Assembly: GCA_041751875.1 (NCBI GenBank)
Contig: JBGSIC010000018.1
Span: 32,723-96,722, forward strand
Origin: Bdellovibrionota bacterium
GTDB taxonomy: Bacteria > Bdellovibrionota > FAC87 > UBA2466 > JACKAF01
Length of the DNA: 64,000 nucleotides
Direction: 5' to 3'
The notes beneath the pieces were generated by a model, which did no database searches, was not told the DNA's origin, and worked only from the letters and a program-made list of their open reading frames with translations. Of this stretch, positions 20,144-49,129 are shown piece after piece. The position numbers and the translations under genes were made by a program. Numbering within the stretch: the first letter of the stretch is position 1; every line of letters starts with the position of its first letter.

Positions 20144-23100
20144 TTGAGCCAACGACCGGGGGGCGGTACGCATCTCTTAATAAAAAGCATTCTGGGTCTC
20201 GCTCTTGTCAGCGCGTTTGCGGTTTTCGCGGACGAAGAGGGGTCCACTTTTCCCATCCAAAATGGGTACATGCGCCTTCAAGCGCATGCGCAAGCGGGTC
20301 GACTTCCTCCGAGCGAACTATTGCGCTATCTGAACTGGGGAGGAACTTCCACTTTCAACCGCCTTTTCGAAATCTACCAGTCGGAATTCTTTCGCCCATG
20401 GAGCAACAAGGAGGAGCGCAAGCGCCTTGAGGCTTTCTTGACCGAACAAGCCATTGCGTGGAGAGCTAGCGGTAGTGATGCTGCGGAACTCGGTTTCAAT
20501 CCGCTGGAGAGGCTCTCCGCTGATATTAGACGTTTTGTTCGCGAACAGTCTGTCGATCTCGATAAGCCGATGGGGTTTCACCGCGCAGAAGCACTAGCCC
20601 GCTCAACTGTCTCGACACGACTCTTGCGGTCCGAACGAGACAAACAGATTCGAAAACTCGCTCTGCAATTAGAAGATGAAGTCGATCCCCTGGCCCGCCA
20701 ACAACTAGCGGTTCCCCTAACGGATCGCTTTGGGCCATGGATCAAGGAAACGATGGGTGAAATTGCAGAAGAGAGTATGCGCCACCATCTGCGCTTGCGT
20801 CGCGCGGCCGCACAGGTCGATCCCGATTTAAAGTTCATGTTAGTCCCGGCTGCCGCTGATCTGAATTCGTTGGAAGGAGGGATAGAAATCTCTCCGGACG
20901 AACTCTTGCGGCTAGCCCCGGTCTATAGTCGCGAGGAGAAGTTTCCCATCGGATTAGCCATGCGATTTCGCGATCCCGCTAGAGACGGGGATTTTCGTTT
21001 GGTGGCGAGTCACCCGCGTTTGCAACCGCAGATGGTAAGCCATTTCAATGTAGCTGCTGATGAAACCCTTGCGGCGCTGATGCGTCTTCACACCTTTACA
21101 GACCCAGAAAAAGCCAAGGCGCTTTTTGCGATTCGTACGCAAGCGGATCACGCGAGCGGTCTTTTGTCGGGGACTTTTTCAGCGTGGGGGAGAGGGAGTT
21201 CGCCTGCCGAAGTATTAAAACACTTAGAGGCGAAAAAGTTTTCGTACGAGTCCATGATTTCCTATTTCGGAGATCGCGAGCGCGTACACGATCTGGTGCT
21301 TGCGCAAGTACTGCACGAGCCGCAAAAATGGCAGAAGCGGTATGAATTTTTAAAGCGTTACGGCGCGCTGGGCTCATCTGCGTTGAAGGGACTTAAGGCT
21401 GCAGCCAGCTCCGGAATGGCAGTCGTTCACTACTCTCACGCTCTGGTCGATGAAATGCGGAATTGGCCGGCCGATCTCAAGAGTTTCGCCCACTCGATAA
21501 AAAACAATGTTGATGTTCAGGCGATAAAATTTGGCGATGTACGGGCGAATAACTCTGGGTATTTGGCCAATTTCTTTCGCCGTTTATTTGGGCGCGTGCC
21601 GGCCGGTGTGGCCGCGCAGCCGGCGGTTCAGTCCAGAGGGGAAAGAGTCCAAAGTCCCAATGGAATGGTAGAAGGGGCAAAGCGTGTGGCGAGAGACGTT
21701 GCGATGGCGGTGGCCGGTGCGGGCGTTCTTTCTGGGGTGGCCATCGGCGCTCATGAGCTCGGTCTTCTCGACGACATCAGTTGGGATTTCTTTAAGGGCG
21801 CCGTAGAGGAATCATTTCGTACGCGTTCGCTTGCTTCCGATATGGGGGACCGTTTGGTTGAGCCCAGTAAGGGGTTTTTGGCCTCAGCGATGAAATGGCC
21901 AGCCTTCGCTGGCGTCGCTCTTGTTGCGGCGGCAACACCCGCGCTCTTGAAAAAAATGGGTAAAAGCGCCCGCGCGCAAGTGGAAGAATCAGACCGGCCG
22001 GTCGATGCACTTTTTACCTACCGACCGGCCGAAGGAGGTCAGATGCCCGCGGGTTTGGAAATTCCCATGAGGACGGATTTGACCTTTGGCGACAGCGAAG
22101 TACGCACGATACCGACTGAGGCGGCGGACGAAAACGTGGGTTTAGTCCATTCTCGGCGTCCGGTTGTGTCGCTGGCAGACGGGATGGTCCCCATTGCGCG
22201 TCCGCTGGGCCAAGCTCTTATCGGGCTTAGAGTCACAGATGCCAATCACCGAAGCCTTAAGCAAGGAAGCGATTTCGAAGTGGTTTATCGCCCCGAGAGA
22301 GATGCTTATTTTATTCGTTTGCTAAACCCAGAAATCGGCTCGGTTCATTATCGTGCGGAAGTGGAAGAAACTCCGAGTGGCTCCCATCGTTTAGACGTAC
22401 GCGGCACTTTGGCCTTAGATGATGTAGACGCGCAGAAAGCTTTGAAGGAGGCAATCGAAAGCTCGGGCTTTGACCGTTTGGGGCGACAAATGGGCCAGCG
22501 CATGACAAGGGGAGCTCTCGCCACAACAGGCGACTTGGAAGCCCTTTTATCGCAGAGTAACTCGTATCCGCTCATGAAAGGGGAAAGTCTTCCCGATTTA
22601 CCGACGGATGATGTCGGTAAGTATGAAAAGTTTCAAGTAGGCGGTTGCCTGAATGGTAATTGCACCGTGAGTAACGGCTTTGGTGCCTCCGCGCTAAACG
22701 CGCTTTTACAAGCGCAGGATCCGGAACTGCGTGCTGAAGTGCGAACGACTCTTCCCCTTCACCAGGATGGACGAGCCTTGGAAGGGCACGTGCGCACCTA
22801 TGTATACCGAGGAGACCAACTCGTAGACGTGCTGGACTTTACTTCCAGCAACATCCGGTACGGGGATATTTTCCGTCACATCATGCGCCGGATCACAGGA
22901 CGTCTTCCCAAGCCCCAGGAAAAAGCGAGCGCACCACCGGCGGACAAGAATGCGGTATTTTTCAACTGGGCGCGCACAGAAGGCAAATCTCTCTTAAAAG
23001 CGTTAGCCGATGATCGAAAGTTTTTGGAGGACCAACTTAAACGCCATCGCGTGAGCGATCAGTCTGATCCGTCCAAGCGTCTCTATGCGCTTCATAATTT

Positions 23101-23443
23101 AATGGAGGCCGTACTCGATCCCCACCAGAAGATCGAAGAAGTCGTTGAGCGTGTGGGAAGGCACGTTTCGTTGCCGGATGGGGAAACCGATCGCTACGCT
23201 TTATTCGACGCTATTTCGGCAGCCATTGAAAGGGAAGGTAAGCAAATTGACAAACTTTACGTTGAAAATCCCGGCAGAAATGATTTTGGTACACGTCGCC
23301 GGCACTTTAACCGTGTGAGCTTAGATCCAGTCGAGAAAGTAGCCCCGATGCAAGATGTGGCCCGCGCGATGGCGAGCACAAACGGACAACTCAGCCGAGG
23401 CGTGAAACGCTGCCGAGAAGCCCTAGCGAGTGTCGCTGATTAA
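20144..23443 (+). CDS. large secreted/membrane-associated hypothetical protein (1099 aa) with possible C-terminal transglutaminase-like Cys-His-Asp core
   Basis: TTG start with an AAGAGGAA SD. Signal peptide. Two central hydrophobic helices. C-terminal segment ...GNCTVSNGFGASALNALL...(about 45 aa)...GHVRTYVYRGDQLVDVLDFT resembles the C / HxW-EVY / D-x-T spacing of the transglutaminase-like cysteine-peptidase core. Confidence 0.5.
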   Translation: MSQRPGGGTHLLIKSILGLALVSAFAVFADEEGSTFPIQNGYMRLQAHAQAGRLPPSELLRYLNWGGTSTFNRLFEIYQSEFFRPWSNKEERKRLEAFLTEQAIAWRASGSDAAELGFNPLERLSADIRRFVREQSVDLDKPMGFHRAEALARSTVSTRLLRSERDKQIRKLALQLEDEVDPLARQQLAVPLTDRFGPWIKETMGEIAEESMRHHLRLRRAAAQVDPDLKFMLVPAAADLNSLEGGIEISPDELLRLAPVYSREEKFPIGLAMRFRDPARDGDFRLVASHPRLQPQMVSHFNVAADETLAALMRLHTFTDPEKAKALFAIRTQADHASGLLSGTFSAWGRGSSPAEVLKHLEAKKFSYESMISYFGDRERVHDLVLAQVLHEPQKWQKRYEFLKRYGALGSSALKGLKAAASSGMAVVHYSHALVDEMRNWPADLKSFAHSIKNNVDVQAIKFGDVRANNSGYLANFFRRLFGRVPAGVAAQPAVQSRGERVQSPNGMVEGAKRVARDVAMAVAGAGVLSGVAIGAHELGLLDDISWDFFKGAVEESFRTRSLASDMGDRLVEPSKGFLASAMKWPAFAGVALVAAATPALLKKMGKSARAQVEESDRPVDALFTYRPAEGGQMPAGLEIPMRTDLTFGDSEVRTIPTEAADENVGLVHSRRPVVSLADGMVPIARPLGQALIGLRVTDANHRSLKQGSDFEVVYRPERDAYFIRLLNPEIGSVHYRAEVEETPSGSHRLDVRGTLALDDVDAQKALKEAIESSGFDRLGRQMGQRMTRGALATTGDLEALLSQSNSYPLMKGESLPDLPTDDVGKYEKFQVGGCLNGNCTVSNGFGASALNALLQAQDPELRAEVRTTLPLHQDGRALEGHVRTYVYRGDQLVDVLDFTSSNIRYGDIFRHIMRRITGRLPKPQEKASAPPADKNAVFFNWARTEGKSLLKALADDRKFLEDQLKRHRVSDQSDPSKRLYALHNLMEAVLDPHQKIEEVVERVGRHVSLPDGETDRYALFDAISAAIEREGKQIDKLYVENPGRNDFGTRRRHFNRVSLDPVEKVAPMQDVARAMASTNGQLSRGVKRCREALASVAD

Positions 23444-36810: not shown

Positions 36811-38465
36811 TTTATTTCCTTCTTGAGAGAGTAGATCGAGTAGTCTTCTCTGTTCCGCACTTCCTGGTGATATCTCTGTACGAAAGAATCGAGCTCTCTG
36901 TCCTCAGTGGGTTCATGCTTCATTTTCACAACCACATTGGAACCGGCGAGTTTCCCCTGATAGTAGCGCAGGCATTGGTTGCGTTCAGTTTGTGAGAACT
37001 GGATGCAGTTCCAAACGGTCGGTGTAGCCGGACGCATGCTGGTCATCAGGTAGCCCGCCGGGAAAGCATCATAGAAAAGAATGTGGCTTCCGGCATTTTC
37101 CAGTGTGCTGAGGTCAGCGGAAAGCTCCCCTAAAAAACGCGCGCGTGCGGGGGTGGTGTAAAGACCCGAGTAAACACCGGTTTTCATTTTGGCAGTGAGG
37201 GTAGGGACACTTCCATCTCCGTAAACCATCAGCAAAAAGTGGGAAAGAAAAAGAAGAACAAGAAGGACCGGAGCGGTGGCACGAATCCATCCTAGACTTG
37301 GTCGACCTGCTTCCTTGATCAGTCGCGATTGAATTAAATACAAAAGAAATAAGGAAACCAAAGCGGCAGGCAACATCCCCAAACCCGCCATCGTCGTGTG
37401 ATTGGTGCTACTCATCCCTGTGGCGATGCCAGCTGCAAGCGAGGGAATCCAGACGAGAAAGAATAAATGGCGGGCGACTGCGGTCTGAGCAGTAAAGACA
37501 AAGAAAAAAGGGCCCAGCAAAGCAAAGTACAGACTGATTTGGAGCGCGCCCAAGGAGGTTTGTACGGGAGCAACCCAGCAGAGTAGCGGTGTGAAACAAA
37601 GTAGTATCGCGGCGGCCGAGGGGCGATAGCGGGCGGTCGCGAAGGTGAGGAGTGAGAGAAAAAACACCCACGGTTTAGAGGGGCCCCAGTAGTAGAAATC
37701 ACGAACGAGAGAAAAAAGCTTCGGCCATGCGAGGCGGTTATTGTTTTCAGAAAAACTAAATTCTTTGGCGCGCTCAAGATCGGAAAGGGAAACTTGCGTA
37801 AACAACCATGCCGCCGTAAGGGCCCCACCTAGAACATAGGCAAGGAAAAGGCTCTTGTTTCGCCGCCAGGTCAGTAAAAGAAAAAATAGCGCGTAGGTCC
37901 CGACTCCAGGGACAAAGGAGGGATGCGCGATGACCGATATTCCTTGTGCCAGCCCCGCGAGCAACGCTAACCAGCTTGCCTTGCTCTTACTTTGTAGTGC
38001 GCTCCACCCGAGAAAGACGCCTGCGGTCCAGAAACCTATCGCCCAGGTGTTGTACGAGAGATTGGCAATCGAAAAGGGTACGAAAGCGATCGGGACGAGG
38101 GCAAACAAAAGGGCATAGTTTTTTCCAAGGCGTTTTCGCAAGAGAAAATAAAGCACGCCGGCAACACTGATGGAAAACAGGAGTGATAGTACACGCATAA
38201 AAAGCATCAGACCCGTTACACCAAACAAAGCATGATAGCCACGGACGAAAGGGAGCGAAATGAGGGAAAAAGTTTGGGCGAGCATCAAATCGTCTTTGAA
38301 GATCTGATCGCCCAAGACATAGCGGTAAGGCAGAGCAACGTAAAAACTCTCATCCCAGAAACTGATGCCATAGGGTAAGCGCCAAGCCATCGCGGCCACC
38401 ACAACCAACGCAAAGCATAGTGCTGCGTGTTGAAAAGTTAGGATTCGTTGGTTGGAGGGGTTCAC
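36783..38465 (-). CDS. GT-C family glycosyltransferase (ArnT/PMT-like, GT39/GT83-type)
   Basis: 560 aa with more than 10 TM helices. DE-containing first periplasmic loop (ISFWDESFYV) and a C-terminal soluble domain. Overlaps the methyltransferase 3' end by 28 nt. Confidence 0.7.
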   Translation of the reverse strand: MNPSNQRILTFQHAALCFALVVVAAMAWRLPYGISFWDESFYVALPYRYVLGDQIFKDDLMLAQTFSLISLPFVRGYHALFGVTGLMLFMRVLSLLFSISVAGVLYFLLRKRLGKNYALLFALVPIAFVPFSIANLSYNTWAIGFWTAGVFLGWSALQSKSKASWLALLAGLAQGISVIAHPSFVPGVGTYALFFLLLTWRRNKSLFLAYVLGGALTAAWLFTQVSLSDLERAKEFSFSENNNRLAWPKLFSLVRDFYYWGPSKPWVFFLSLLTFATARYRPSAAAILLCFTPLLCWVAPVQTSLGALQISLYFALLGPFFFVFTAQTAVARHLFFLVWIPSLAAGIATGMSSTNHTTMAGLGMLPAALVSLFLLYLIQSRLIKEAGRPSLGWIRATAPVLLVLLFLSHFLLMVYGDGSVPTLTAKMKTGVYSGLYTTPARARFLGELSADLSTLENAGSHILFYDAFPAGYLMTSMRPATPTVWNCIQFSQTERNQCLRYYQGKLAGSNVVVKMKHEPTEDRELDSFVQRYHQEVRNREDYSIYSLKKEINQIDEDRRG

Positions 38466-38652
38466 AGATTAATCAGTATAGCACGCGTCACAGCGCGCCA
38501 AGGTGGGACTACGCGTCTGCCCCAGCCTTTAAAAAAGGCATCATAATATGGTAAAATAAAAAGGTCTTTTAGCTGCAGATCTTTGTTCCTTAAGGCCGTT
38601 CCGGCCTCTTCAAATCAAGCCTTTGCCTTCGGATTCGAAAGGATTTCCCACG

Positions 38653-39681
38653 ATGAAAACCGTTTTAGTGACTGGTGCCGGCGGATATATCGGCACGATG
38701 ATAGTCGAGCGTCTGTTGGAAGAAAATTATAAAGTTATTGGCGTCGACAGATACTTCTTTGGGAAAGAGTTGTTAGGGGAATCACGGCAACACGAAAATT
38801 TCAGTCTTCTTCAGAAAGACAACCGCAAGCTGACGGTTGAGGATTTCAAGGATGTCGATGCGGTGATTGATCTTGCTGGGTTGTCGAACGATCCCACCGC
38901 TGAATTGTCTCCGACACTTGCTTGGAGCATCAACTATGAGGGCGGGGTTCACACCGCAAAAATGGCGAAGGCCGCCGGAGTGAAACGCTTTCTCTACTCT
39001 TCGTCGTGTTCGGTTTACGGAACAGGACAAGCACTTTGTCTGGACGAGAGTTCCGAACCCAATCCCGCTACCGTTTATGCAGAAACCAAAGTTCAGGTGG
39101 AAAAGGAACTCGCGAAAATCCAGTCTTCGGACTTTGAAGTGGTTGTGCTGCGCAATGCGACAGTTTATGGCTTGTCCAAACGCATGCGTTTTGACCTGGT
39201 GATCAATCTGATGTCACTCACCGCGTGGCGTGATGGAAAGATTGTGATCATGGGAGGCGGAAAACAGTGGCGCCCCGTCGTGCATATTCGCGATGTGGCG
39301 GAAGCCTTTCTTATTTGTTTGGAAGCCGCAAGCGAAAAAGTCGCGGGACAAGTGTTTAATGTTGGCTCCGACGATCAGAACTATCAAATTTTTCAGCTCG
39401 CCTACATGATAAAGTCGGTGTTCCCAGGCTGTGAAATCATCACAGCGCCTGATGACGCCGACAAGCGAACTTACAATGTCAGCTTCAAGAAAATTCAGAA
39501 AGAGCTGAATTTCATTGCGACGATGACTCCGCTGGCGAGTGCCAATGAACTTAAAGTGGCGCTCACGATGGGGCGGATCGATATTTCTGATTCTCGCCTA
39601 AACACTTTGAAGTACTACCAACACCTCCTGAAGGTGCAGGAACTTTTTAAGGAACTCGCCGAAGATGGAAAAATTATCTAA
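38653..39681 (+). CDS. NAD-dependent epimerase/dehydratase (extended SDR)
   Basis: TGAGGYIG Rossmann motif. The YxxxK catalytic pair is expected. ATG at 38653. Confidence 0.8.
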   Translation: MKTVLVTGAGGYIGTMIVERLLEENYKVIGVDRYFFGKELLGESRQHENFSLLQKDNRKLTVEDFKDVDAVIDLAGLSNDPTAELSPTLAWSINYEGGVHTAKMAKAAGVKRFLYSSSCSVYGTGQALCLDESSEPNPATVYAETKVQVEKELAKIQSSDFEVVVLRNATVYGLSKRMRFDLVINLMSLTAWRDGKIVIMGGGKQWRPVVHIRDVAEAFLICLEAASEKVAGQVFNVGSDDQNYQIFQLAYMIKSVFPGCEIITAPDDADKRTYNVSFKKIQKELNFIATMTPLASANELKVALTMGRIDISDSRLNTLKYYQHLLKVQELFKELAEDGKII

Positions 39682-40852
39682 AAGATCCGTCCCCTTTTTT
39701 AAGCATAATCTCCAGGAAGAAGATTTTCTGGAGCTGCAAGATACTCTTAAAAGCGTCTTTCTCACCACGGGTCCAAAGACCAAACGTTTTGAAGAACAGC
39801 TTGCCTCCTATTTAGGAGCAAAACATGGCATCGCCTGTACCAGTTGGACCACCGCTGCTTTTTTGGTGCTAAAGGCCTGGGGGATTGGGCCCGGTGACGA
39901 AGTCATTGTACCGGCGCTAACCTTTATAGCGACTCCCAACATTGTTCTTCACTGTGGCGCCAAGCCGGTCTTTGTCGATTCGGAAGCCCTCACAGGCAAC
40001 ATTGACGTGGAACAGATTGAGAAAGCGATTACTCCGGATACCAAGGCCATCATTCCCGTTCATCTTTATGGACAAATGGTGGACATGGAGAAACTTTCGG
40101 CGATTGCGAAAAAACACAAACTTAAAGTGTTGGAAGACTGTGCGCATTGTATTGAAGGTACGCGGGATGGCTATCGCCCAGGGCAAAAAAGCGACGCTGC
40201 TTGTTTTAGTTTCTACGCCACCAAAAACATTACCTGTGGTGAAGGTGGGGCGATTGTGACGTCTGACTCCGAGCTCAATGAAAAGGTGCGCCTGCTTAGA
40301 CTTCACGGAATGAGTCTGTCGGCAAGCGATCGTTATACAAGCACCTACAAACACTGGGACATGCTCGCTCTGGGATACAAAGCGAATCTCTCTGATATCC
40401 AATCAGCGCTCTTGATTCATCAGCTCGAGCGCATCGACACGGTATTGAAGAAAAAGGAAGAGCTCTGCCAGTTTTATGAAAAGAAACTTTCTGCCGCGGG
40501 TGTTCCGTTCCCGAAGGTGCTACCGGGTAGCCAGTCGGCACGGCATCTATTTACTTTCTGGGCACCACGGGGAAAAAGAGACGAAATGCTTACCGGCTTG
40601 CAAGAAGCGGGCATTGGTGTGGCGGTGAACTTTCGTTCGGTGCCCACCCTGAAGTTTTATCGAGAACGTTACGGTTACGGGCCGGGCAAATTTCCTGTAG
40701 CGGAGAAAATAGGGGAGCAAACCATTACGGTTCCGATGTATGTTTCTTTGAGTCAGGAAGACGCCAGCTACGTGGCGGATCAAATCATTGCGCTGTACAA
40801 GCGCCTTCAGCCTCAGCCTGCCTCAAGCGGAGAATTAACCGCTTCACTCTAG
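39665..40852 (+). CDS. DegT/DnrJ/EryC1/StrS-family PLP-dependent sugar aminotransferase (ArnB/GnnB/WbpE-like)
   Basis: Family pattern ...SFYATKNITCGEGG... with PLP-Lys in ATKN. Confidence 0.85.
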   Translation: MEKLSKRSVPFFKHNLQEEDFLELQDTLKSVFLTTGPKTKRFEEQLASYLGAKHGIACTSWTTAAFLVLKAWGIGPGDEVIVPALTFIATPNIVLHCGAKPVFVDSEALTGNIDVEQIEKAITPDTKAIIPVHLYGQMVDMEKLSAIAKKHKLKVLEDCAHCIEGTRDGYRPGQKSDAACFSFYATKNITCGEGGAIVTSDSELNEKVRLLRLHGMSLSASDRYTSTYKHWDMLALGYKANLSDIQSALLIHQLERIDTVLKKKEELCQFYEKKLSAAGVPFPKVLPGSQSARHLFTFWAPRGKRDEMLTGLQEAGIGVAVNFRSVPTLKFYRERYGYGPGKFPVAEKIGEQTITVPMYVSLSQEDASYVADQIIALYKRLQPQPASSGELTASL

Positions 40853-40856
40853 GTTC

Positions 40857-40878
40857 TAAAACGTGCCAGGCACCTTTT
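40857..40878. terminator. weak bidirectional terminator hairpin AAAA-CGTGCC-A-GGCACC-TTTT between convergent genes
   Basis: 5-bp GC stem flanked by an A-run and a T-run. The sequence is related to the intergenic repeat family. Confidence 0.3.
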
Positions 40879-40882
40879 GGAA

Positions 40883-41971
40883 CTAGCTGGCTAGTTTGGT
40901 TTGGGTGGGATCCGTTTTGGGATCGTTGATGGTCGGGTGACCGCCCAAGGGTTCGAGCGGTAAGGGCACCCAACATTGCTGGGTGTGTGCGAGCTTATCT
41001 GCTTGCTCCAAAATTCTCACCACACGTAAGCCCTGATAGCCATCCGTGCGCGGGGCAACCCCTTTTTGCAAGCAAGATACCATGTGGTTCACTTCGATTC
41101 GAAGAGCCTCAGTTTGATCTATCGCCGGTGAGTAGACATCGCCGTGGCGGTACTTAATGTAGTCCACGTAGCTTTTCTCTTTGTCAGCGGTTTCCAGCGC
41201 GTCCACACCTTTGTCGAATACCTTTATTTTCTGCACGACATCCACATCGTCGTACACAACCATCTTTTTCCGACCAGTCAAAACCGTGCGACGGATTTTC
41301 GAGGGCGACAACCAACTTGCGTGAATCGAAGCAATGAAGTTGTTTTGGTAGTTTAGGTGCATAAAGCCGATATCGGGTTGCGGCAAGCGAGCTGCGTTTT
41401 TCGCCGAAACTGAGATCTCAATCGGATCGTAGGGAATGAGTTCATTGAGAATGGAAAGATCATGCGCCATGAGATCAAAAATAACACTGATGTCCGGTTG
41501 ATAGAGGCCTAGGTTCATGCGCTCCGATTCGTAATAAAGGAGGTCGCCCAAGTCTTTCTTCTTCACCATCTCCTTCATGTAGGCAACAGCGGGGTGGTAC
41601 ACGTAGGTGTGGTCCACCATGAGCATCTTTTTTCGACGCTGGGCTTCTTCAATCAGATAAAGACTTTCCTTTTCCGTCGCCGTCATCGGCTTGGTAATCA
41701 AAAGATGTTTGTCGGCCTTAAGCGCTTTCATACCCAACGCGAAATGACTATGGACGGGAGTGGCGATGACAATCAGGTCGAGATGCGTGTCTTCAAAAAG
41801 ATCGTCGGCGCGCGTCGTGGTACGCACGGAAGGGTAACGTTGGCCTAGCTTTGCCAAACGTTTGGTGTCGAGGTCACACATCCACAAAACTTTCATGTCC
41901 TCGTTCTCGAAGAGGTTTCTAAGTAAGTTGGGACCCCAGTAGCCTATACCGATGATGCCGGCGCGTATCAT
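40883..41971 (-). CDS. Gfo/Idh/MocA-family NAD(P) oxidoreductase (GnnA/WbpB-like sugar dehydrogenase candidate)
   Basis: GIIGIGYWGPNLLRNL Rossmann N-terminus. 362 aa. Confidence 0.8.
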   Translation of the reverse strand: MIRAGIIGIGYWGPNLLRNLFENEDMKVLWMCDLDTKRLAKLGQRYPSVRTTTRADDLFEDTHLDLIVIATPVHSHFALGMKALKADKHLLITKPMTATEKESLYLIEEAQRRKKMLMVDHTYVYHPAVAYMKEMVKKKDLGDLLYYESERMNLGLYQPDISVIFDLMAHDLSILNELIPYDPIEISVSAKNAARLPQPDIGFMHLNYQNNFIASIHASWLSPSKIRRTVLTGRKKMVVYDDVDVVQKIKVFDKGVDALETADKEKSYVDYIKYRHGDVYSPAIDQTEALRIEVNHMVSCLQKGVAPRTDGYQGLRVVRILEQADKLAHTQQCWVPLPLEPLGGHPTINDPKTDPTQTKLAS

Positions 41972-42131: not shown

Positions 42132-42140
42132 TGCTACAAT
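42132..42140 (+). promoter_or_regulatory. extended -10 element TGCTACAAT upstream of pilM
   Basis: TGn plus TACAAT lies 110 nt upstream of the pilM GTG start. Confidence 0.3.
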
Positions 42141-42249
42141 GTTATTGTTATCTACGGAGCATCCGTTTTTCCACCCGCTCCACAAGTTATTCAGCCATTG
42201 CGTAGAAAAGGGCGTTTGCCCGTCGCGTATTCTCTTTCATGGGAGTCTT

Positions 42250-43314
42250 GTGGGGTTTTGGGATCAGTGGAAAAAAAGACGTCTGGTGGGAATTGACGTA
42301 GGCATGTCCGGAATAAAAGCGGTGGAGCTTCAGATGGGCAAGAGGCCGCGTTTGATTTCCTACAATCGCGTGAATCTCCCATGGGAAGCCATCGGTAGTG
42401 ATGGGGCGATATCCGATCCCCAAGCCGTCTCTGAGGCTTTGCGATCGTTGTTTGAGTCGTCCACTTTTTCTTCTCGCAAAGTGGCGGTAGGTGCATCAGG
42501 CGCGTCGGTTTTTACAAAGCGTGTGCGCATGCCGCGCATGAAAGAGGTTGAATTGCGTGAGCAGATTAGTTTTGAAGCCGAGCAGTATCTGCCGTTTTCA
42601 GCGGACGAAGTGAACCTTGATTTTGCGATTCTCGGACCGGTTCCTCAGACCAATCAAATGGAAGTGCTGTTGGTTGCCATAAAGAAAGATTTTGCGAGGA
42701 ACTGGGAAACAATTGCCAAGCAGGCCGGGCTTGAACTGGCCGTGCTCGATATCCAACCCTTCGCTTTGGGAAATGTTTTTGAGTTTAACTACGCCGAGAA
42801 CAAAGAGCTGCCGGTGGGTGTGGTTACCCTTTTGTTAGATTTTGGAGCTGGAGCGATCAAGCTGTCCGCTGTGGAGAAAGATAAAACCACTTTCACCCGA
42901 GAAATTCTCGCGGGGGGAATGGTCTGTAGTCAGTTGATCGCCGAAGCGATGGAAATTCCGCTCGACGAGGCGGAGTACCACAAAATTCATCATCCATCGG
43001 CTGACGGCGTTAAGGCGGCGGTTGCCGCCTATGTGCAACACGCCACGGATCAAGTCGCTCGTGCTATTGAAGTTTATCTAAGTGGCGAGGGCGATGTCGT
43101 GATCGACGGCCTCTATATATGTGGTGGCGCTTCACAGACGCCGGGTTTGAAGGACAGTTTGGAAAAGCAGTTGGGTTATTCGGTTCACACCCTCAATGCG
43201 GTACGCAATATCGCAGGCTCTGGGGCAAAGATGAATCCGGAAGCCATTGAGGAACTGAGTTACTTAGGTGCCGTAGCCATGGGATTGTCGCTCCGTTCTG
43301 AGGGCGATTCTTAA
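42250..43314 (+). CDS. pilM: type IV pilus assembly protein PilM (actin-like ATPase fold)
   Basis: GTG start after GGGAG. RRLVGIDVGMSGIKAVEL N-terminus and overall PilM pattern. Confidence 0.8.
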   Translation: MGFWDQWKKRRLVGIDVGMSGIKAVELQMGKRPRLISYNRVNLPWEAIGSDGAISDPQAVSEALRSLFESSTFSSRKVAVGASGASVFTKRVRMPRMKEVELREQISFEAEQYLPFSADEVNLDFAILGPVPQTNQMEVLLVAIKKDFARNWETIAKQAGLELAVLDIQPFALGNVFEFNYAENKELPVGVVTLLLDFGAGAIKLSAVEKDKTTFTREILAGGMVCSQLIAEAMEIPLDEAEYHKIHHPSADGVKAAVAAYVQHATDQVARAIEVYLSGEGDVVIDGLYICGGASQTPGLKDSLEKQLGYSVHTLNAVRNIAGSGAKMNPEAIEELSYLGAVAMGLSLRSEGDS

Positions 43315-43353
43315 ACGGTTGAATTGCGAAGTTTGCCTTAAAGGAGGCATTAG

Positions 43354-43779
43354 ATGGAAGCACTCATTGGATTGCAAGCGGGTTTGAATCTGCTGTTTTT
43401 GAGTTTAGGCCTCTATTTATATAAGAAGAGATCTAACGCGTTTGACGGGGAAGCCCAAGCTCAAGCGAAGGCCTACCTGACCGTTCTCGAAAGTCGAGTC
43501 GAAGAGGCCGAGGGGAGAACGCGCAAAGTGATTAATGAGAGCGAGCGCCAACTAAAAATTCTTTTGCAAATTTGTGATCGCGCCGCGGCAGTAATGGATC
43601 AAGCGCAGGTGCCTTCTATCACTTTGTCCTCTTCAGAAGAACAAAAAGAACTCCTCGAAGCGCGTCCCAAGGGCGCGGAATCGATTCCCACCGTAGCGGA
43701 TGTCCAAAAAATGCGACAAAAGATCACAGCAGACAGCGCGGTGGATCTTCCTCAGCTTCTCAACGAGCAACTCGCCTAA
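43354..43779 (+). CDS. small single-TM hypothetical protein
   Basis: 141 aa. N-terminal TM helix (LNLLFLSLGLYLY) then a coiled/charged region. Does not match PilN. Confidence 0.4.
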   Translation: MEALIGLQAGLNLLFLSLGLYLYKKRSNAFDGEAQAQAKAYLTVLESRVEEAEGRTRKVINESERQLKILLQICDRAAAVMDQAQVPSITLSSSEEQKELLEARPKGAESIPTVADVQKMRQKITADSAVDLPQLLNEQLA

Positions 43780-43894
43780 AGCGCCGTTATCCCCCCTTTC
43801 TGTCCACTTTTGAGCCGATCACGGATCGGCCGCGTGCGGCAATTTTCCCTTTTATCTCAACGGAATACGATGACACACCGGGGAAAAAATTCCC

Positions 43895-43923
43895 TTGACA
43901 GAGGGGGTCACTCATCCAAGAAT
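43895..43923 (+). promoter_or_regulatory. candidate sigma-70 promoter TTGACA-N17-AAGAAT
   Basis: Perfect -35 hexamer and 17-bp spacer. Located about 350 nt upstream of phaR. Confidence 0.3.
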
Positions 43924-44040
43924 ACCAACTGGATCATCGGTAGCCTCTTGCGTCCAAGTGGTACTTACCTCTAGGTGGGGCTTGGTAGCAAGGAGCCGGG
44001 TTTGGGGTTGAGAGAGGGCCAGTTTTCTTTTACCGGGATT

Positions 44041-44072
44041 CTGTTCAGATAGCGCGACGCGCTGTTAAACAG
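44041..44072. promoter_or_regulatory. nested palindrome CTGTT-cagat-AGCGCGaCGCGCT-gttaa-AACAG in phaR leader
   Basis: 13-bp perfect palindrome AGCGCGACGCGCT flanked by a CTGTT/AACAG pair. Confidence 0.3.
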
Positions 44073-44273
44073 GTTATCAGTCGTCACGTGGCTTGCAATT
44101 ATCATTGGTGGGAGGAGGGTGCTTTAACTAGCGCCTACTAATAGATAAGTTTTATGCGTTGTATACAAAGGCCTTGTGATGATTTCTCGGCAAAAAGAAG
44201 ATGAAGGCTCTGGATTCGGTTCCAAGCTCAAAATTGAAACTGAAACAGTCCTTTCAGGTTGGGGGTAAAAAAC

Positions 44274-44693
44274 ATGGAGAAGGCTAAAATTATTAAACGG
44301 TATCAGAATCGTAAATTGTACGACACTGATGCAAGCTGCTACGTGACGCTTGATGAGATCGCAGACATGATTCAGCAAGGCGAGCAAATCACGGTCGTCG
44401 ACAATCGGAACCAAAAGGACATCACAGCAGCTACGCTTACTCAGATCATTTTTGAGAAGCAGAGACGCTCTGAATCTCCGATTCCGATCTCGACTCTGCG
44501 CCACATCATCCAACAGGGTGATGGTTCGTTCAGTTCTTTTCTCGCTAAATCGGGTGATGGGAATCAGCTCGATTTGATCGATACCCTCGAAGCTCAGATT
44601 AAGAGTCTGAACGCTAAGGTGGGTGAGCTTGAACAGAAAGCCGGAATGTCCCCGAATGCGGGTCAATCCCACTCTGTCGAAGCGGAAGTCTAA
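44274..44693 (+). CDS. phaR: polyhydroxyalkanoate synthesis repressor PhaR-family DNA-binding protein
   Basis: KIIKRYQNRKLYDTDASCYVTLDEIADMI matches the PHB/PHA accumulation regulator DNA-binding domain signature. Confidence 0.8.
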   Translation: MEKAKIIKRYQNRKLYDTDASCYVTLDEIADMIQQGEQITVVDNRNQKDITAATLTQIIFEKQRRSESPIPISTLRHIIQQGDGSFSSFLAKSGDGNQLDLIDTLEAQIKSLNAKVGELEQKAGMSPNAGQSHSVEAEV

Positions 44694-44696
44694 TTA

Positions 44697-44760
44697 AATC
44701 CCGCTCCGGGGCTTTAAGTTCCTTTTTGGGGGAATTTGAATCTGGAGCGGGTTTTTTTTC
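44697..44760 (+). terminator. rho-independent terminator (long-loop hairpin CCCGCTCCGG...CTGGAGCGGG + T8)
   Basis: About 10-bp GC-rich stem followed by TTTTTTTT, immediately after the phaR stop. Confidence 0.5.
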
Positions 44761-44965
44761 TTTTCGGGTAACTCTTAAGCTCCCCTGTCCGGTGCGTGGT
44801 TGGGAATAATTCTAACCTACGAGTATTTACTCGGGTGCTTTCCCTTATTGCTGTGCGCATACCTGCTTGCAGGGAGCCTAAGGTAATAACAGAGTGCCCC
44901 CCTATCTCTGATAGGGTTAAGAATTATCCCGCTACGGCCCATGATGGGGGAGCTTTAAACTCCGT

Positions 44966-45475
44966 ATGATGACAAGTGATAAAACGATCCGCTGGATCGA
45001 GAACCTCGCCGAACAAGAAGTTCTGATTAACTCAGGCGAAAAAACTTCTATCGATATAACAACCACAAAAGGCGAAGTCCTATCGGTTGAAACCGGAAAT
45101 TTTGTTCAAGATTTGCTCCAACAGTTTGAATACCTGGTGCGACTTTTTAATTCCCGAATCGAAAACCGGGATCTCCATATCATTTTGGTGAGTGGCACGG
45201 AAAGAGGGGCGGGTTTCTCCCTGGTGCGCAACCAGATGAAGCTCACGCTCAGCGCCCCCCTTGCGGGTCGCATTCAGCTCAGCTGCATGAAGATTGTCGA
45301 AGAGGACAAATCGATGCCTCCCAAGGTGAGTGTCATGTTTAGTGGACTCATCGAATCAAGTTTCGGTACCTTCCATGACGTGGAATGGTACTTTTTGGGC
45401 ACTCGGGTTGACGCTGAGCAGGTGGCGCGCCACTACTTGACCGAGTTTATCCAGGCGAGCCGCCGTCCGAGTTAG
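44966..45475 (+). CDS. hypothetical cytoplasmic protein (169 aa)
   Basis: ATG start. No TM, signal peptide or known motif. Upstream of the flp gene. Confidence 0.4.
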   Translation: MMTSDKTIRWIENLAEQEVLINSGEKTSIDITTTKGEVLSVETGNFVQDLLQQFEYLVRLFNSRIENRDLHIILVSGTERGAGFSLVRNQMKLTLSAPLAGRIQLSCMKIVEEDKSMPPKVSVMFSGLIESSFGTFHDVEWYFLGTRVDAEQVARHYLTEFIQASRRPS

Positions 45476-45541
45476 TTTTCCAACTCTCGTACTACAGACC
45501 ATAATTTCGACCCTTTAGTTTCCCGCTTGAGCCTATGTTTT

Positions 45542-45556
45542 TGGCATCCCGTTCGC
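45542..45556 (+). promoter_or_regulatory. candidate sigma-54 promoter TGGCAT-N5-TCGCA upstream of flp pilin gene
   Basis: GG and GC elements spaced 10 nt apart, about 30 nt upstream of the flp ATG. Confidence 0.4.
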
Positions 45557-45584
45557 ATTGCTTTGTTAGGAAAGCGAGGGGAAC

Positions 45585-45836
45585 ATGAAAAAACACCCTA
45601 GAAAAAATGTCGGGCAAGGATTGGTGGAATACCTCATCCTGACCTGTTTAGTGGCGGTATCCGCGATCGCCGTGGTGAGCGTCGTAGGACAAAACATCCG
45701 CGCCCGGTACGCGAATATTTCGGCAGCGATTCGCGGGACGCGGGGAGGAGAGAAACTGGAGGCGGCCGATGATTCCTCCGTTGAGATGCGAGGATTCCAT
45801 GATTTTGGGGAAGCGTCGTTCAATCAAGGGAACTAG
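45585..45836 (+). CDS. flp: Flp/Fap-family type IVb prepilin
   Basis: Leader MKKHPRKNVGQG followed by G/LVEYLILTCLVAVSAIAVV. The G-x4-EY processing motif and hydrophobic core are typical of Flp pilins. Confidence 0.75.
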   Translation: MKKHPRKNVGQGLVEYLILTCLVAVSAIAVVSVVGQNIRARYANISAAIRGTRGGEKLEAADDSSVEMRGFHDFGEASFNQGN

Positions 45837-46185
45837 CGGACAAGTCTTTTGCGAAGCCAGTATGATTTGTTTTTTGGTCGTTCTGGCACTTGTTCTCAAT
45901 ATTGAAATAGTTCGTCGAGCGGGTTGGGAAACTACGTTGCAATACGCCAGTTTCAGATTCGCCCGGAAGCGTGCGATGGGCAAAAGTGATCGGAGAGCTA
46001 GAGACGAAGTGAGATCCTTTCTGCTTCTCACCGGAGCTCATGGCAGGGGAGGGCCTCGGTTAAAGTGGACGAGTCACATTTCCTGGGACGACAAAATGGT
46101 GGGAAAAATCTCCACGCGCTTTCCTTCGCTTCTGGCTCTTCCAGATAAACATCACTACGAAATGACCAAAGCATGCAGGTTTTAG
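45799..46185 (+). CDS. TadE-like pseudopilin
   Basis: MILGKRRSIKGTSGQ-VFCEASMICFLVVLALVLNIEIVRR parallels the TadE N-terminal domain (basic leader, hydrophobic helix, IEFGR-like end). Start is uncertain (45769, 45799 or 45862). Overlaps the flp 3' end. Confidence 0.45.
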   Translation: MILGKRRSIKGTSGQVFCEASMICFLVVLALVLNIEIVRRAGWETTLQYASFRFARKRAMGKSDRRARDEVRSFLLLTGAHGRGGPRLKWTSHISWDDKMVGKISTRFPSLLALPDKHHYEMTKACRF

Positions 46186-46760
46186 TGCTCCTTTCCCTTC
46201 CCGTCTTTGTGGCAAGTCTTGCTGCTTCGCTCGATTTGTACAAAGAGGTGTACCGATTGGAAGAACGCACCATCGGTGTGGATAACGCGGGAATAAGCTT
46301 AGCCAGCGCAGACGCCCATCTGTTCAACCATTTTGAGAAAAGTAAGAGAACCTTTGACCGTCTCGAAACGGCTCATCATATCGTGCATCTTTGTGCGCGC
46401 TCCGCTGTCGCGACAGCGGCTTGCCTTAAGCAGGATGTGGCGCTGGAGAAAGCCCTTACTGTTTCGGCGAACTTGCTATGGAAGAGTCTGCAAATCAAAT
46501 GGACTAAAAATCTGATCGCCGCCCAAAGCGAGGCGATAAAAAGGCGCACCACAGTTTGCATAAAACACCGGCCCCGTCTTCCCCCGTTTGAAAGAGGCGT
46601 TTGCGAAACATGCAGCCTCCCTGTGAAATGGAAGCAAACGGTTCGGCGTCCGCTTTGGGAAGTTTCCGAATGTCCACAAAGAAACGCCCCTCTCGTTATT
46701 CAAACACTATTGGAAAAAAGTCCCTCTGGAAAATGGTGGAGCCGCTTGAGGGAAGGGTGA
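46173..46760 (+). CDS. hypothetical protein with N-terminal hydrophobic helix (possible TadF/TadG-like)
   Basis: MQVLVLLSLPVFVASLAASLDLYKEV N-terminus. The Cys-rich C-terminal half is of doubtful coding quality. Confidence 0.3.
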   Translation: MQVLVLLSLPVFVASLAASLDLYKEVYRLEERTIGVDNAGISLASADAHLFNHFEKSKRTFDRLETAHHIVHLCARSAVATAACLKQDVALEKALTVSANLLWKSLQIKWTKNLIAAQSEAIKRRTTVCIKHRPRLPPFERGVCETCSLPVKWKQTVRRPLWEVSECPQRNAPLVIQTLLEKSPSGKWWSRLREG

Positions 46761-46918
46761 AAACAAAAGGCACTTTTCTCATCGAGGGGTTTCTGGTGAT
46801 TTGGCTTTTAGTCGCTGTGATAGGCACGGTTCATCTTTCGCTTCTTTGTAAAACCCAACGTGAACTTAAGGTTCTTCAAGAAAAGCGGCTGCACTATAGT
46901 AGAGAGAGCCCGCCATGA
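46733..46918 (+). CDS. small prepilin-type N-terminal cleavage/methylation-motif protein
   Basis: MVEPLEGRVKTKG/TFLIEGFLVIWLLVAVIG has Glu at +5 after Gly, then a hydrophobic helix. Its stop overlaps the cpaB ATG (ATGA). Confidence 0.35.
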   Translation: MVEPLEGRVKTKGTFLIEGFLVIWLLVAVIGTVHLSLLCKTQRELKVLQEKRLHYSRESPP

Positions 46919-47604
46919 AGGGGGCTCAGTTTCCGAAATGTTCCCGCCGAAGGGCGCAACTACTTTTCTCTCTTTTTGTATCTTGCTGCGTAGGAATGGT
47001 GGTCGTGTGGGAAGTTTTTCGGTTCACAAATCGCTCCCTTGATCAGGTGGAAGATTACCTTCTCGTGGCTCGCCGAGATTTGAAGGGGGGGCACCGCGTG
47101 ACGCTTCAAGATCTTTCTCTCGTTCCGGAATCAAACTGGCATGTGGAAAGAAGCGCGGATGCTCTCACGGATGCCGATCTTGAGTTTGTAGGAAGAAGGT
47201 TGATAGCTGACATCAGCGGCGGAACCCTCTTTACGCGTTCCCTCTTTAAGCCCCCCGAGTCCAAGGCTACGTGGGGTGCGAAGGTTCCGAAGGGCTTTAG
47301 AGCGTATGCGCTTTGCGTGGAAACAGTCCTTCCCGTTCAAGCCAAAGACAGGGTGGACCTGGTTCATTCAGAGAAGCGGAGCGCTGCTCAGGTAGCGGAG
47401 GATCTTTTGGTGTTGGGGGTGCGGCCTTGTGAAGGGGGAAGGGAGGTAATTCTTGCGGCGCGTCCTAAAGACGTTGAGTTGGTGGAAAAGGCGCGCCAAA
47501 CAGGTAAACTAACAATAGTCATTCGAAACCCCGCCGATAAAAAACGAAACCGGCACCGAAAGAAAACCAACCCAGCTAAGGTGATTATTTGGAACGAAGA
47601 GTAA
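46915..47604 (+). CDS. cpaB: Flp pilus assembly protein CpaB/RcpC-like
   Basis: N-terminal TM, SAF-like segment (LLVARRDLKGGHRVTLQDL), then a C-terminal RcpC-like region. Confidence 0.6.
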   Translation: MKGAQFPKCSRRRAQLLFSLFVSCCVGMVVVWEVFRFTNRSLDQVEDYLLVARRDLKGGHRVTLQDLSLVPESNWHVERSADALTDADLEFVGRRLIADISGGTLFTRSLFKPPESKATWGAKVPKGFRAYALCVETVLPVQAKDRVDLVHSEKRSAAQVAEDLLVLGVRPCEGGREVILAARPKDVELVEKARQTGKLTIVIRNPADKKRNRHRKKTNPAKVIIWNEE

Positions 47605-48881
47605 AAAGTGGGGTTTTGAGAACTTTACGAAAGACGCTAGGGGGGCATCCTCTTGTATGGGGCCTAATCTTTTCCTACGGCATTGCCCAGGCCGTACCCA
47701 TTCCAACTCGTGAGCGGGTGCTCGGCATCGCCCAGTTGGGAGTTCCGGCAGATATCTCCCATTCGCGCGCGTATCCCCTGCTGGAAAAGAAACTCGAAAA
47801 CTTTTTGGAAAAACTGGGTCGCACACCCGTCAAACGTTCCCCAATCACTCTTCCCAAAAGTCAGGTGCAGATGTTGACCGCCAGCACTCAGGTACAAAAA
47901 CAAACCGAAAGTCTGACGGTAGCGCTTAGCGAAGATGCTTCCTCTTTGAAGTCTGTTCATGCAGCGCTCGACCAAACCCTGAGCGCTTATCCCATTCATT
48001 TTCCTTCAGCGGGAATCTGGCAGCGCGCCTATGTGGCACAAGCGGCGTATTGGTGGCAACGGCAGAATAAAGAAAAGGCGCTGGAATGGTTGAGCCGTGC
48101 GGCGTTGCTGCATCCGGATCAAAAGATCCAGGATAGCAGTTCGTTTGCCTTTGAGGCACAGGCGCAACCTAAACTTTGGCTGGCGTTTGATTCCCAGTTG
48201 GAAAATCAGCCCTCTTTACTCAACTATTGCGCGGTGGAAGTGGTTGTTCCGAAAATGCCTCACTCAGGAAACATAAGGGTGAACGGTTTTTCGTTTGGAA
48301 CTCGCCGGGCTTTTCGCCTTCCTTTGGGAGGGACCTATCTTTTCGACTTCAGTCATGAAAAGTGGAGCTCCACGCGGGAAATGGTTCGTTGTCAGAAGGT
48401 GAGCAAAATCCGAGTGGAGTTAGCTCTGGTTCCCAAGAAAGAAGATTTCTTGGCCCTTGATTCCCGTAACGTGTCAGAGGAAAGCTCATCGGTTGTTTTG
48501 ATCGAATCACTCCAAGATCGCTTTCGTTTTTTTCTCTATACACCGGGCGAGGCCTTGGACGAGATCCCTCTCGAAAAGCCAGTGCGAATCGCAGAACTTC
48601 TAGAAGATCCTCTTTCCGCCACAGTTCCTATTCAAAGCGATGCGCTTAAGCACTTGCTTGAAAAGCACGAGGGAAGCCCTTTGAGTCTGGCAACGCTCTC
48701 GCTGGATTCTCCGTCATTTGCAGGTCAGGAAGAGCACGGTGTCACGACGCCTTGGTACAGGGACTGGAAAGTTTGGGCGGTAGCCGGCGGCATCGTGGGC
48801 GGTGTGATCGCGGTTCACTTAGCGACGAAAAAATCAGAGGTAACAGGCCAGGCCCACGGCCTGAGAATCGAGATTAAATAA
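47589..48881 (+). CDS. secreted hypothetical protein with TPR-like motif and C-terminal TM anchor
   Basis: Signal peptide ...PLVWGLIFSYGIAQA. TPR-like AYVAQAAYWWQRQNKEKALEWLSRAALLHPD. C-terminal helix WAVAGGIVGGVIAVHLA. Not a secretin. Confidence 0.4.
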   Translation: MERRVKSGVLRTLRKTLGGHPLVWGLIFSYGIAQAVPIPTRERVLGIAQLGVPADISHSRAYPLLEKKLENFLEKLGRTPVKRSPITLPKSQVQMLTASTQVQKQTESLTVALSEDASSLKSVHAALDQTLSAYPIHFPSAGIWQRAYVAQAAYWWQRQNKEKALEWLSRAALLHPDQKIQDSSSFAFEAQAQPKLWLAFDSQLENQPSLLNYCAVEVVVPKMPHSGNIRVNGFSFGTRRAFRLPLGGTYLFDFSHEKWSSTREMVRCQKVSKIRVELALVPKKEDFLALDSRNVSEESSSVVLIESLQDRFRFFLYTPGEALDEIPLEKPVRIAELLEDPLSATVPIQSDALKHLLEKHEGSPLSLATLSLDSPSFAGQEEHGVTTPWYRDWKVWAVAGGIVGGVIAVHLATKKSEVTGQAHGLRIEIK

Positions 48882-49129
48882 TGGATGAGAGCCAGAGTAA
48901 GTTCTTGGTTAACTTCTTTTCCCAGTTTTCTCGTGAGCAGTTGTTTATTGGTTTTTGGTTGATGATTCTGGGGTTGTTTCTACTCTCGGCGACACGCTTT
49001 TTGGGTGGGCGAAGTCAACGCAACTTCAGAAACGGGCCCTCAACTCCACAGAAACCTCCGACGCCTTCCTCGAGTAAAGCGGTGAGTGTCCCACGTAAAG
49101 ACCTCACGAAGGGGCCACGATCGCGCTAA
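48881..49129 (+). CDS. small membrane protein (hypothetical)
   Basis: One TM (LFIGFWLMILGLFLLSA) then a Pro/Ser-rich tail. Start overlaps the previous stop. Confidence 0.3.
   Translation: MDESQSKFLVNFFSQFSREQLFIGFWLMILGLFLLSATRFLGGRSQRNFRNGPSTPQKPPTPSSSKAVSVPRKDLTKGPRSR

Follow-up and report, generated by a model that had tools for sequence, protein, structure and literature searches.

A candidate C4 oxidase–aminotransferase gene pair in a proposed Arn-like envelope sugar cluster of a Bdellovibrionota bacterium

The Arn pathway of Escherichia coli and Salmonella (PmrHFIJKLM; ArnA, B, C, D, T and E/F) adds 4-amino-4-deoxy-L-arabinose (Ara4N) to lipid A. Its chemistry runs from oxidation at C4 through transamination by a DegT-family enzyme and N-formylation to loading onto undecaprenyl phosphate by a family 2 glycosyltransferase (GT2), and ends with transfer in the periplasm by a glycosyltransferase of the GT-C fold. 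Other amino-sugar systems that work on polyprenyl phosphate are FlmF2/FlmK/NaxD of Francisella (galactosamine, GalN), LgmABC of Bordetella (glucosamine, GlcN) and PpgS/Rv3779 of mycobacteria (GalN). Amination at C3 is the business of a different set of enzymes, GnnA/GnnB (A. ferrooxidans, Leptospira, Campylobacter) and WbpB/WbpE (Pseudomonas aeruginosa), in which a nucleotide-sugar 3-dehydrogenase is joined by a 3-aminotransferase. Here we describe three neighboring genes in 64,000 nucleotides of DNA from a Bdellovibrionota bacterium (assembly GCA_041751875.1, contig JBGSIC010000018.1, positions 32,723 to 96,722 of the forward strand). This whole stretch is the window, and positions below are counted from its first letter. 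The genes encode an extended short-chain dehydrogenase/reductase (SDR), a DegT-family aminotransferase and a Gfo/Idh/MocA oxidoreductase (Gfo below), which a sequence-only reading of the window had taken for a functional trio of the GnnA/GnnB kind. We favor, at a probability of roughly 0.6, a different arrangement: the SDR and DegT genes would be translationally coupled, their products together making a 4-amino-4-deoxy sugar in nucleotide-activated form for an Arn-like polyprenyl-phosphate pathway, with Gfo standing apart.

The SDR gene (38653..39681, + strand; PF01370 Epimerase, 1.9e-44) encodes an extended-SDR nucleotide-sugar oxidoreductase whose top match in the PDB is 6vo6, which we take to be Cj1427, a GDP-heptose C4 dehydrogenase. 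The match covers residues 2–282 at 124 bits (8.3e-35), and the runner-up scores 79 bits. Three motifs, RMRFDLVIN, WRPxxHxRDV and DxDKRxYNVS, are shared by the window SDR, 12 orthologs and 6vo6 and are absent from RffG and the C-domain of E. coli ArnA. The active-site stretch reads SSSCSVYG in the window protein, or (S/A)SSCS(V/I)YG when the orthologs are included, as against STSEVYG in ArnA and STDEVYG in RffG. Serine thus occupies the position of the catalytic glutamate in the SDR and in all 12 orthologs. An extended SDR without that Glu or Asp is expected to be neither a 4,6-dehydratase nor a decarboxylase of the ArnA/UXS type, and so no dehydratase or decarboxylase activity is expected here. 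The simplest reading of these residues is that the SDR would oxidize C4 without further chemistry and pass a keto group to DegT. Cj1427 offers a precedent of sorts, releasing a 4-keto sugar while its tightly bound NAD(H) is recycled with alpha-ketoglutarate (PMC10680097). The two proteins align over about 280 residues, have RMRxDLxxN, HxRDV and DxDKRxY in common, and both lack the dehydratase acid/base pair. The similarity is nevertheless modest and the company they keep is different: an aminotransferase in the window, epimerases and reductases in the case of Cj1427.

The DegT gene (39665..40852, +; PF01041, 1.5e-116) encodes an aminotransferase dependent on pyridoxal phosphate. It is 37% identical to E. 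coli ArnB (1e-73), and against PDB references it scores 227 bits with ArnB, 224 with perosamine synthase, 218 with QdtB and 184 with WbpE. We tried to read regiochemistry from such bit scores and from shared residues, and neither is decisive; the informative evidence is clade bootstrap, a single indel and gene linkage. For the clades we built a neighbor-joining tree of 74 sequences, with references drawn from PDB alignments and E. coli K-12. GnnB itself is absent from the tree and is represented by WbpE, QdtB, DesV and 18 DegT proteins encoded next to Gfo genes. The window DegT and 21 relatives form a clade of their own in 100 of 100 bootstraps. A second clade, holding WbpE, QdtB, DesV, 7b0d, 7n63 and every sampled Gfo-adjacent DegT, excludes the window clade in 86 of 100. 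The indel tells a similar story. After the conserved HG motif, each member of the window clade has an insertion of 11–12 residues (HGMSxSAxDRYTxxYxHWDM), which is found too in E. coli ArnB, the ArnB of 8sng and PseC-like DegT proteins encoded beside SDR genes. It is missing from the five structural 3-aminotransferase references and from all 18 Gfo-adjacent DegT proteins. We infer a separate clade on the 4-aminotransferase side, and propose that the window enzyme is a nucleotide-sugar 4-aminotransferase. It is not treated as an ArnB ortholog because sharing at the residue level does not favor ArnB.

Linkage across relatives points the same way. The set of loci carrying a DegT of this clade numbers 83, of which 59 have sufficient upstream DNA and 22 have at least 4 kb on each side. 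An SDR gene lies directly upstream of DegT in 31 of the 59, and in 12 of those 31 it is of the window type, meaning an ortholog at least 40% identical. That the SDR always precedes DegT, a generalization we considered, is too strong: the figure is 31/59 overall and 6/8 among loci whose DegT is at least 55% identical. The three closest DegT relatives on long contigs (60–65% identity; L007, L008 and L009, L-numbers being our handles for loci) each have a window-type SDR (47–52% identity) immediately 5' of DegT. L008 comes from a Pseudodesulfovibrio strain. Gfo is absent from all three loci; besides the pair they carry a GT2, a transferase for acyl or formyl groups, GtrA and large membrane proteins. 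Since relatives of the window DegT pair with an SDR even where Gfo is missing, it is the SDR that would have to supply the keto group. Homologs of the ArnC-like GT2 described below (34–40% identity) occur in 8 of the 12 loci with a window-type pair. A Bdellovibrionales metagenome-assembled genome (MAG; L176) repeats the module as DegT, SDR, methyltransferase, divergent GT-C, methyltransferase and GT2. Where a DegT of this clade has no adjacent SDR, its neighbors are methyltransferases, GT-C enzymes of the PMT_2 type and radical SAM proteins.

The genes themselves are arranged as the sequence-only reading had described them, and open reading frame (ORF) and folding analysis bore out its coordinates, the overlap, the convergent Gfo gene and a spacer hairpin able to fold on both strands. 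The SDR ORF opens at a TTG at 38623. Its likeliest start is the ATG at 38653, which agrees with the 342-aa SDR gene called in an independent assembly of the same DNA. DegT begins 17 nt before the SDR gene ends (stop at 39681). A GTG at codon 9 of DegT is an alternative start that would abolish the overlap, yet the SDR and DegT genes overlap in L008 and L009 as well. Beyond DegT a spacer of 30 nt leads to the convergent Gfo gene (40883..41971, −; PF01408 GFO_IDH_MocA, 7.6e-19, plus the C3 domain). The space between their stop codons is filled by a palindromic hairpin (40852..40884, without strand) of −15.0 kcal/mol on the plus strand and −13.7 on the minus (z about −2.6 against shuffles), in which a pattern scan found no canonical intrinsic terminator. 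Gfo is monocistronic, bounded by convergent DegT on one side and divergent pilM on the other. All three genes fall into their Pfam families without ambiguity. No further DegT, SDR or Gfo paralog of the trio occurs in the 64-kb window. On the other side of the pair, a promoter-like site (38528..38557, +; TTTAAA-18-TAAAAT with TG upstream) lies in the 187-nt divergent intergenic region 5' of the SDR gene; it is a consensus match, and sites of this kind are as numerous as chance predicts.

What, then, is Gfo? Its top NCBIfam model is NF040723, archaeal UDP-GlcNAc 3-dehydrogenase (8.3e-42, 143.7 bits against an equivalog cutoff of 450), and the runner-up family scores 75 bits. Its best PDB match by sequence is 7bvj, the GnnA of A. 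ferrooxidans, at 68 bits. An AlphaFold2 model (pLDDT, the predicted local confidence score, of 88) has the same protein as its top fold match, with an E-value of 1.2e-26, a TM-score of 0.86–0.88, an rmsd of 2.5 Å and 23% identity. A genome scan brought in a wider family of 80 loci, with proteins 41–50% identical, in Acidobacteriota, Nostoc, Rhizobium, Azospirillum, Methylomicrobium and others. Where flanking DNA was sufficient (69 loci), 47 had a co-directional DegT within 450 nt of Gfo, mostly just downstream. The Methylomicrobium locus runs hexapeptide acetyltransferase, Gfo, DegT, NeuD/PglB-type acetyltransferase, SDR, second DegT and chain-length regulators, a layout typical of diacetamido-sugar pathways. 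The DegT beside the Gfo of L025 scores 436 bits against 7b0d, 362 against QdtB, 349 against 2oga (which we take to be DesV) and 304 against WbpE, but 176–184 against ArnB. On this evidence of sequence, fold and neighborhood the window Gfo is a probable GnnA-like nucleotide-sugar 3-dehydrogenase, and here the sequence-only reading had it right: this is not an inositol dehydrogenase or some other sugar dehydrogenase.

Closer to home, orthologs of Gfo (61–66% identity) could be viewed in six other contexts (L002, L003, L005, L172, L174 and L175). None of the six has a window-type SDR–DegT pair beside the ortholog, and five place it amid other glycan genes (GT2s, a Gfo paralog, methyltransferases, large membrane proteins). 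In three of them, L005, L174 and L175, the ortholog adjoins GT2 genes and a second Gfo paralog that is 29–35% identical to the window Gfo, which suggests a recurring Gfo–GT2–Gfo arrangement of unassigned role. L002 has a 369-aa DegT about 2 kb from the ortholog, beside glmS. This DegT is of the 3-aminotransferase type (369 bits with 7b0d, 310 with 2oga, 275 with WbpE, 172 with ArnB) and is without the insertion after the HG motif. In the other direction, a Gfo homolog occurs in one of the 83 DegT-clade loci, and there it is paired with a 3-aminotransferase-type DegT of its own. We infer that the window Gfo gene lies outside the SDR–DegT pathway and that its natural partner is probably a WbpE/GnnB-type aminotransferase encoded elsewhere. 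A GnnA role remains plausible, making Gfo a candidate for synthesis of 2,3-diamino-2,3-dideoxyglucose (GlcN3N) or of a diacetamido sugar in the organism. Bdellovibrio lipid A has a GlcN3N backbone. A scan of ORFs from about 20 to 53 kb of the window turned up no lpx gene. Bdellovibrio lipid A is described in PMC2233673, which cites Schwudke et al. 2003, as unusual in having mannose in place of phosphate.

Upstream of the SDR gene lies what looks like the machinery for delivering the sugar to the envelope, and the earlier suggestion that a sugar pathway feeds an adjacent glycosyltransfer module holds for the SDR–DegT pair, which sits by genes for a GT-C enzyme and for a GT2 resembling ArnC. This GT2 (33102..34082, +), an ArnC-like polyprenyl-phosphate glycosyltransferase, shares 33% identity with E. 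coli ArnC across 310 aa, its full length (5e-55), and matches the ArnC model NF007986 at 8.1e-51 and 172.9 bits, the cutoff being 529. Downstream of it is a small predicted lipoprotein (34150..34584, +), with a signal peptide and the lipobox ISAC read from the translation; it has no family match and its membership of the module is uncertain. Two co-operonic genes follow on the minus strand, a PurN-like formyltransferase (34693..35364, −; PF00551, 4.5e-31) and a WbqC-family protein (35364..36074, −; PF08889, 2.7e-79), the WbqC stop overlapping the formyltransferase start by 1 nt. The formyltransferase scores 119 bits with the PurN model TIGR00639 (cutoff 150). In its place L009 has a formyltransferase of the Fmt/ArnA type and L007 and L008 have a GNAT, which suggests that modules of this kind generally N-acylate the amino sugar. 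WbqC homologs are present in 10 of the 22 DegT-clade loci with long flanks. In L150 and L152, too, WbqC is found near a formyltransferase. The literature yielded nothing on WbqC function, nor on a pathway pairing a C4 dehydrogenase with an aminotransferase. Next comes a class I methyltransferase dependent on S-adenosylmethionine (36163..36810, +; Methyltransf_11/25/12 matches), and methyltransferases recur in the related modules L009, L176 and L097.

The last of these upstream genes, divergent from the SDR gene, encodes a membrane protein of 560 aa (36783..38465, −) that belongs to a rare, unnamed family of GT-C glycosyltransferases. Its AlphaFold2 model has a pLDDT of 86 and a predicted TM-score (pTM) of 0.89, and the top 12 Foldseek matches in the PDB are all GT-C enzymes, the best being ArnT (5ezm, 7.5e-6). 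A search of 5.8 billion proteins returned 21 homologs, none with a precomputed Pfam domain. There are weak matches to DUF2142 and PMT_2. D38, just after the first transmembrane (TM) segment, is nearly invariant. A link to ArnT is visible in the fold comparison alone: BLASTP, a profile search of PDB sequences and an hhalign comparison with the E. coli protein, where the probability was below 1%, all failed to show one in the sequence. The large membrane proteins of L008 and L009 have no detectable homology to the window family, so the GT-C component is not conserved at the sequence level across all modules. From its modeled fold, which is confidently GT-C, we regard the protein as a candidate new GT-C family and propose that it moves the sugar from polyprenyl phosphate to a periplasmic acceptor. 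The genes of the cluster are spread over five alternating transcription units rather than a single operon, and their composition profile gives no signal of horizontal transfer.

Taken together, the genes at 33.1–40.9 kb best fit the description of an Arn-like variant whose oxidase is of the Cj1427 type. The proposed pathway would begin with the SDR oxidizing C4 of a common nucleotide sugar, with neither dehydration nor decarboxylation. DegT would then transaminate the 4-keto product with glutamate as donor, the PurN-like enzyme would probably N-formylate the new amino group, and methylation of the sugar may follow. The ArnC-like GT2 would load the sugar onto polyprenyl phosphate and, after flipping, the rare GT-C enzyme would pass it to an acceptor of the periplasmic envelope, for which lipid A, core or some other glycan are the candidates. 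These steps parallel those of Arn, and the GT2 and the GT-C enzyme resemble ArnC and ArnT at the level of family or fold. There are also differences. The oxidase is a stand-alone SDR of the Cj1427 type without the decarboxylase glutamate of the Thr-Ser-Glu stretch in the ArnA C-domain, which makes Ara4N derived from UDP-glucuronic acid an improbable product. The formyltransferase is a separate, PurN-like protein; WbqC and methyltransferase genes have been added; the cluster yielded neither an ArnD nor an ArnE/F; and the likeness of the GT-C enzyme to ArnT does not extend to sequence. The Flm, Lgm and PpgS systems likewise use an ArnC-like GT2 and a GT-C enzyme to decorate a glycolipid or glycan of the envelope with an amino sugar, but they start at UDP-HexNAc, deacetylate on the lipid carrier and have no dedicated oxidase–aminotransferase pair.

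One can go further, although here we are speculating and rate the idea as possible rather than probable. The SDR and DegT could form a self-contained C4 oxidase–transaminase couple, an extended-SDR counterpart of WbpB/WbpE, in which alpha-ketoglutarate released by the aminotransferase re-oxidizes the NADH held by the SDR. Its product would be a 4-amino-4-deoxy sugar with no 6-deoxygenation or decarboxylation, which might be N-formylated or methylated, carried on polyprenyl phosphate and placed on a Bdellovibrio-like envelope by an unrecognized GT-C family.

Three other explanations have to be set against the coupled pair. One is a canonical Arn or viosamine-type pathway, where the SDR would either decarboxylate its substrate as the ArnA C-domain does or act as a 4,6-dehydratase, yielding L-Ara4N or a 4-amino-4,6-dideoxy sugar. 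The parts list is suggestive, with ArnC-, ArnB- and ArnT-like proteins and a formyltransferase to hand, and the SDR is weakly similar both to the ArnA C-domain (24% identical, 3e-16) and to UDP-glucuronate decarboxylases (about 65 bits). Yet the SDR and 12 of 12 orthologs have serine where ArnA, UXS and RmlB need glutamate (SSCS against TSE or TDE), and the motifs shared with Cj1427 are foreign to the ArnA C-domain and RffG. Scores against the equivalog models are far under their cutoffs (289 of 631 for ArnB with NF008658, 173 of 529 for ArnC, 48 of 777 for ArnA), and no ArnD was found. We consider this explanation unlikely. The GnnA/GnnB (WbpB/WbpE) mode, in which Gfo oxidizes C3 of UDP-GlcNAc, the neighboring DegT aminates it, the SDR is an epimerase and the product goes to lipid A as GlcN3N or to the glycosyltransfer module, strikes us as quite improbable. 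It draws on a Gfo that is closer to GnnA than to any other solved structure, on a family whose members usually have a DegT of the WbpE/QdtB type and sugar N-acetyltransferases after them, on the 30 nt that separate the Gfo and DegT genes, and on the uncertain regiochemistry of a DegT that scores nearly as well with QdtB as with ArnB. But Gfo is just 23% identical to GnnA, and the two genes converge and are not co-transcribed. The adjacent DegT falls outside the clade of Gfo partners, WbpE, QdtB and DesV (86/100) and bears the 4-aminotransferase-type insertion, and no DegT of the 3-aminotransferase type adjoins Gfo. Nor is the adjacency conserved in either direction (1/83 and 0/6): in L002 the Gfo ortholog still has a canonical DegT of the 3-aminotransferase type close by, and relatives of the window DegT go with an SDR where Gfo is absent. 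The trio as a functional unit, and DegT as an equivalent of GnnB or WbpE, are thus the parts of the sequence-only reading that we would give up. It had left the product as a 3-amino or a 4-amino sugar; the 4-amino option fits, whereas the 3-amino route by way of a GnnB/WbpE-type DegT does not. It had also proposed placing the aminotransferase among ArnB, GnnB and WbpE, and that placement came out clearly on the negative side, outside the WbpE/QdtB/DesV clade, and less so on the positive, grouping with ArnB in 51 of 100 bootstraps.

The third explanation makes the SDR merely a 4-epimerase or reductase, with the keto substrate of DegT coming from an enzyme encoded elsewhere and the gene order reflecting the general clustering of glycan genes. 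GalE is indeed the top NCBIfam model for the SDR (104 bits), the Ser-rich motif is GalE-like, and among the more distant loci of the DegT clade roughly one in two is without an SDR beside it. Against this, the SDR and DegT genes overlap or abut in the window, L008 and L009, window-type SDRs were recognized in the loci by their place immediately 5' of a DegT-clade gene, and the closest solved relative is a dehydrogenase that releases a 4-keto sugar, not an epimerase. We think it very unlikely.

The coupled-pair reading has difficulties of its own, and they should be stated together. With its GalE-like motif the SDR could be a plain 4-epimerase. In four SDR orthologs (L098, L095, L008 and L007) the lysine of the YxxxK motif is off position +4 (YARANLKA, YAHANLKA, YAECNIKA and YAKSSREA); the window SDR keeps the canonical YAETK. 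Such a displaced lysine is unusual in a catalytic SDR. The joining of the DegT clade with ArnB stands at just 51/100, its conserved columns agree with the 3-aminotransferase consensus in 18 cases and with ArnB in 7, and the window DegT is about equally identical (33–39%) to ArnB, perosamine synthase and the 3-aminotransferases. The formyltransferase is far closer to PurN (111 bits in the PDB) than to sugar N-formyltransferases (30 with the ArnA N-domain). When nine cluster proteins were compared by BLASTP with E. coli ArnD, ArnE and ArnF nothing significant emerged; no ArnD-like deformylase came to light in the cluster, and 33.1–42 kb yielded no ArnE/F- or GtrA-like flippase, whether sought as a Pfam match or as a small ORF with several TM segments. 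As for Gfo, the GnnB-type partner we propose for it was not seen in the 64-kb window. That a GnnA-like gene should stand beside a DegT by chance is a priori unlikely, and a lineage-specific functional link may exist.

The surroundings of the cluster deserve a brief description. A few kb upstream are genes for a DedA/VTT-domain membrane protein (28516–29214, +) and an RDD-family membrane protein (31799–32320, +). According to PMC7835334, a DedA protein of Burkholderia is needed for Ara4N modification of lipid A. Further upstream still, an ORF of 1099 aa (20144–23443, +) matches no Pfam family at E ≤ 1e-5 and adjoins genes for an M16 peptidase and a HemN-like radical SAM protein. On the far side of Gfo, the interval 42139–49000 (+) opens with pilM (PF11104, 1.1e-58) and continues with a run of ORFs without a Pfam match, possibly diverged genes for the assembly of type IV pili. 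Here too lies a 6S RNA (SsrS) gene (44779–44954, +), a full-length match to Rfam RF00013 at 82.9 bits against a gathering score of 46.4.

There are practical lessons for annotation. A Gfo/Idh/MocA gene beside a DegT gene is not enough for a GnnA/GnnB call; the clade of the aminotransferase needs checking, and the loop insertion after the HG motif is a simple marker for that check. As to biology, if the coupled pair does what we propose, it would be an ArnA-independent route to a 4-amino sugar linked to a lipid carrier, and C4 dehydrogenases of the Cj1427 type would have a second biological role. The small set of known systems for periplasmic decoration of the envelope would be extended, and a GT-C family without a Pfam model would gain a function. 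Nor would the route be peculiar to one organism: it is spread over several uncultured lineages, including Bdellovibrionales MAGs, Pseudodesulfovibrio and many metagenomic contigs.

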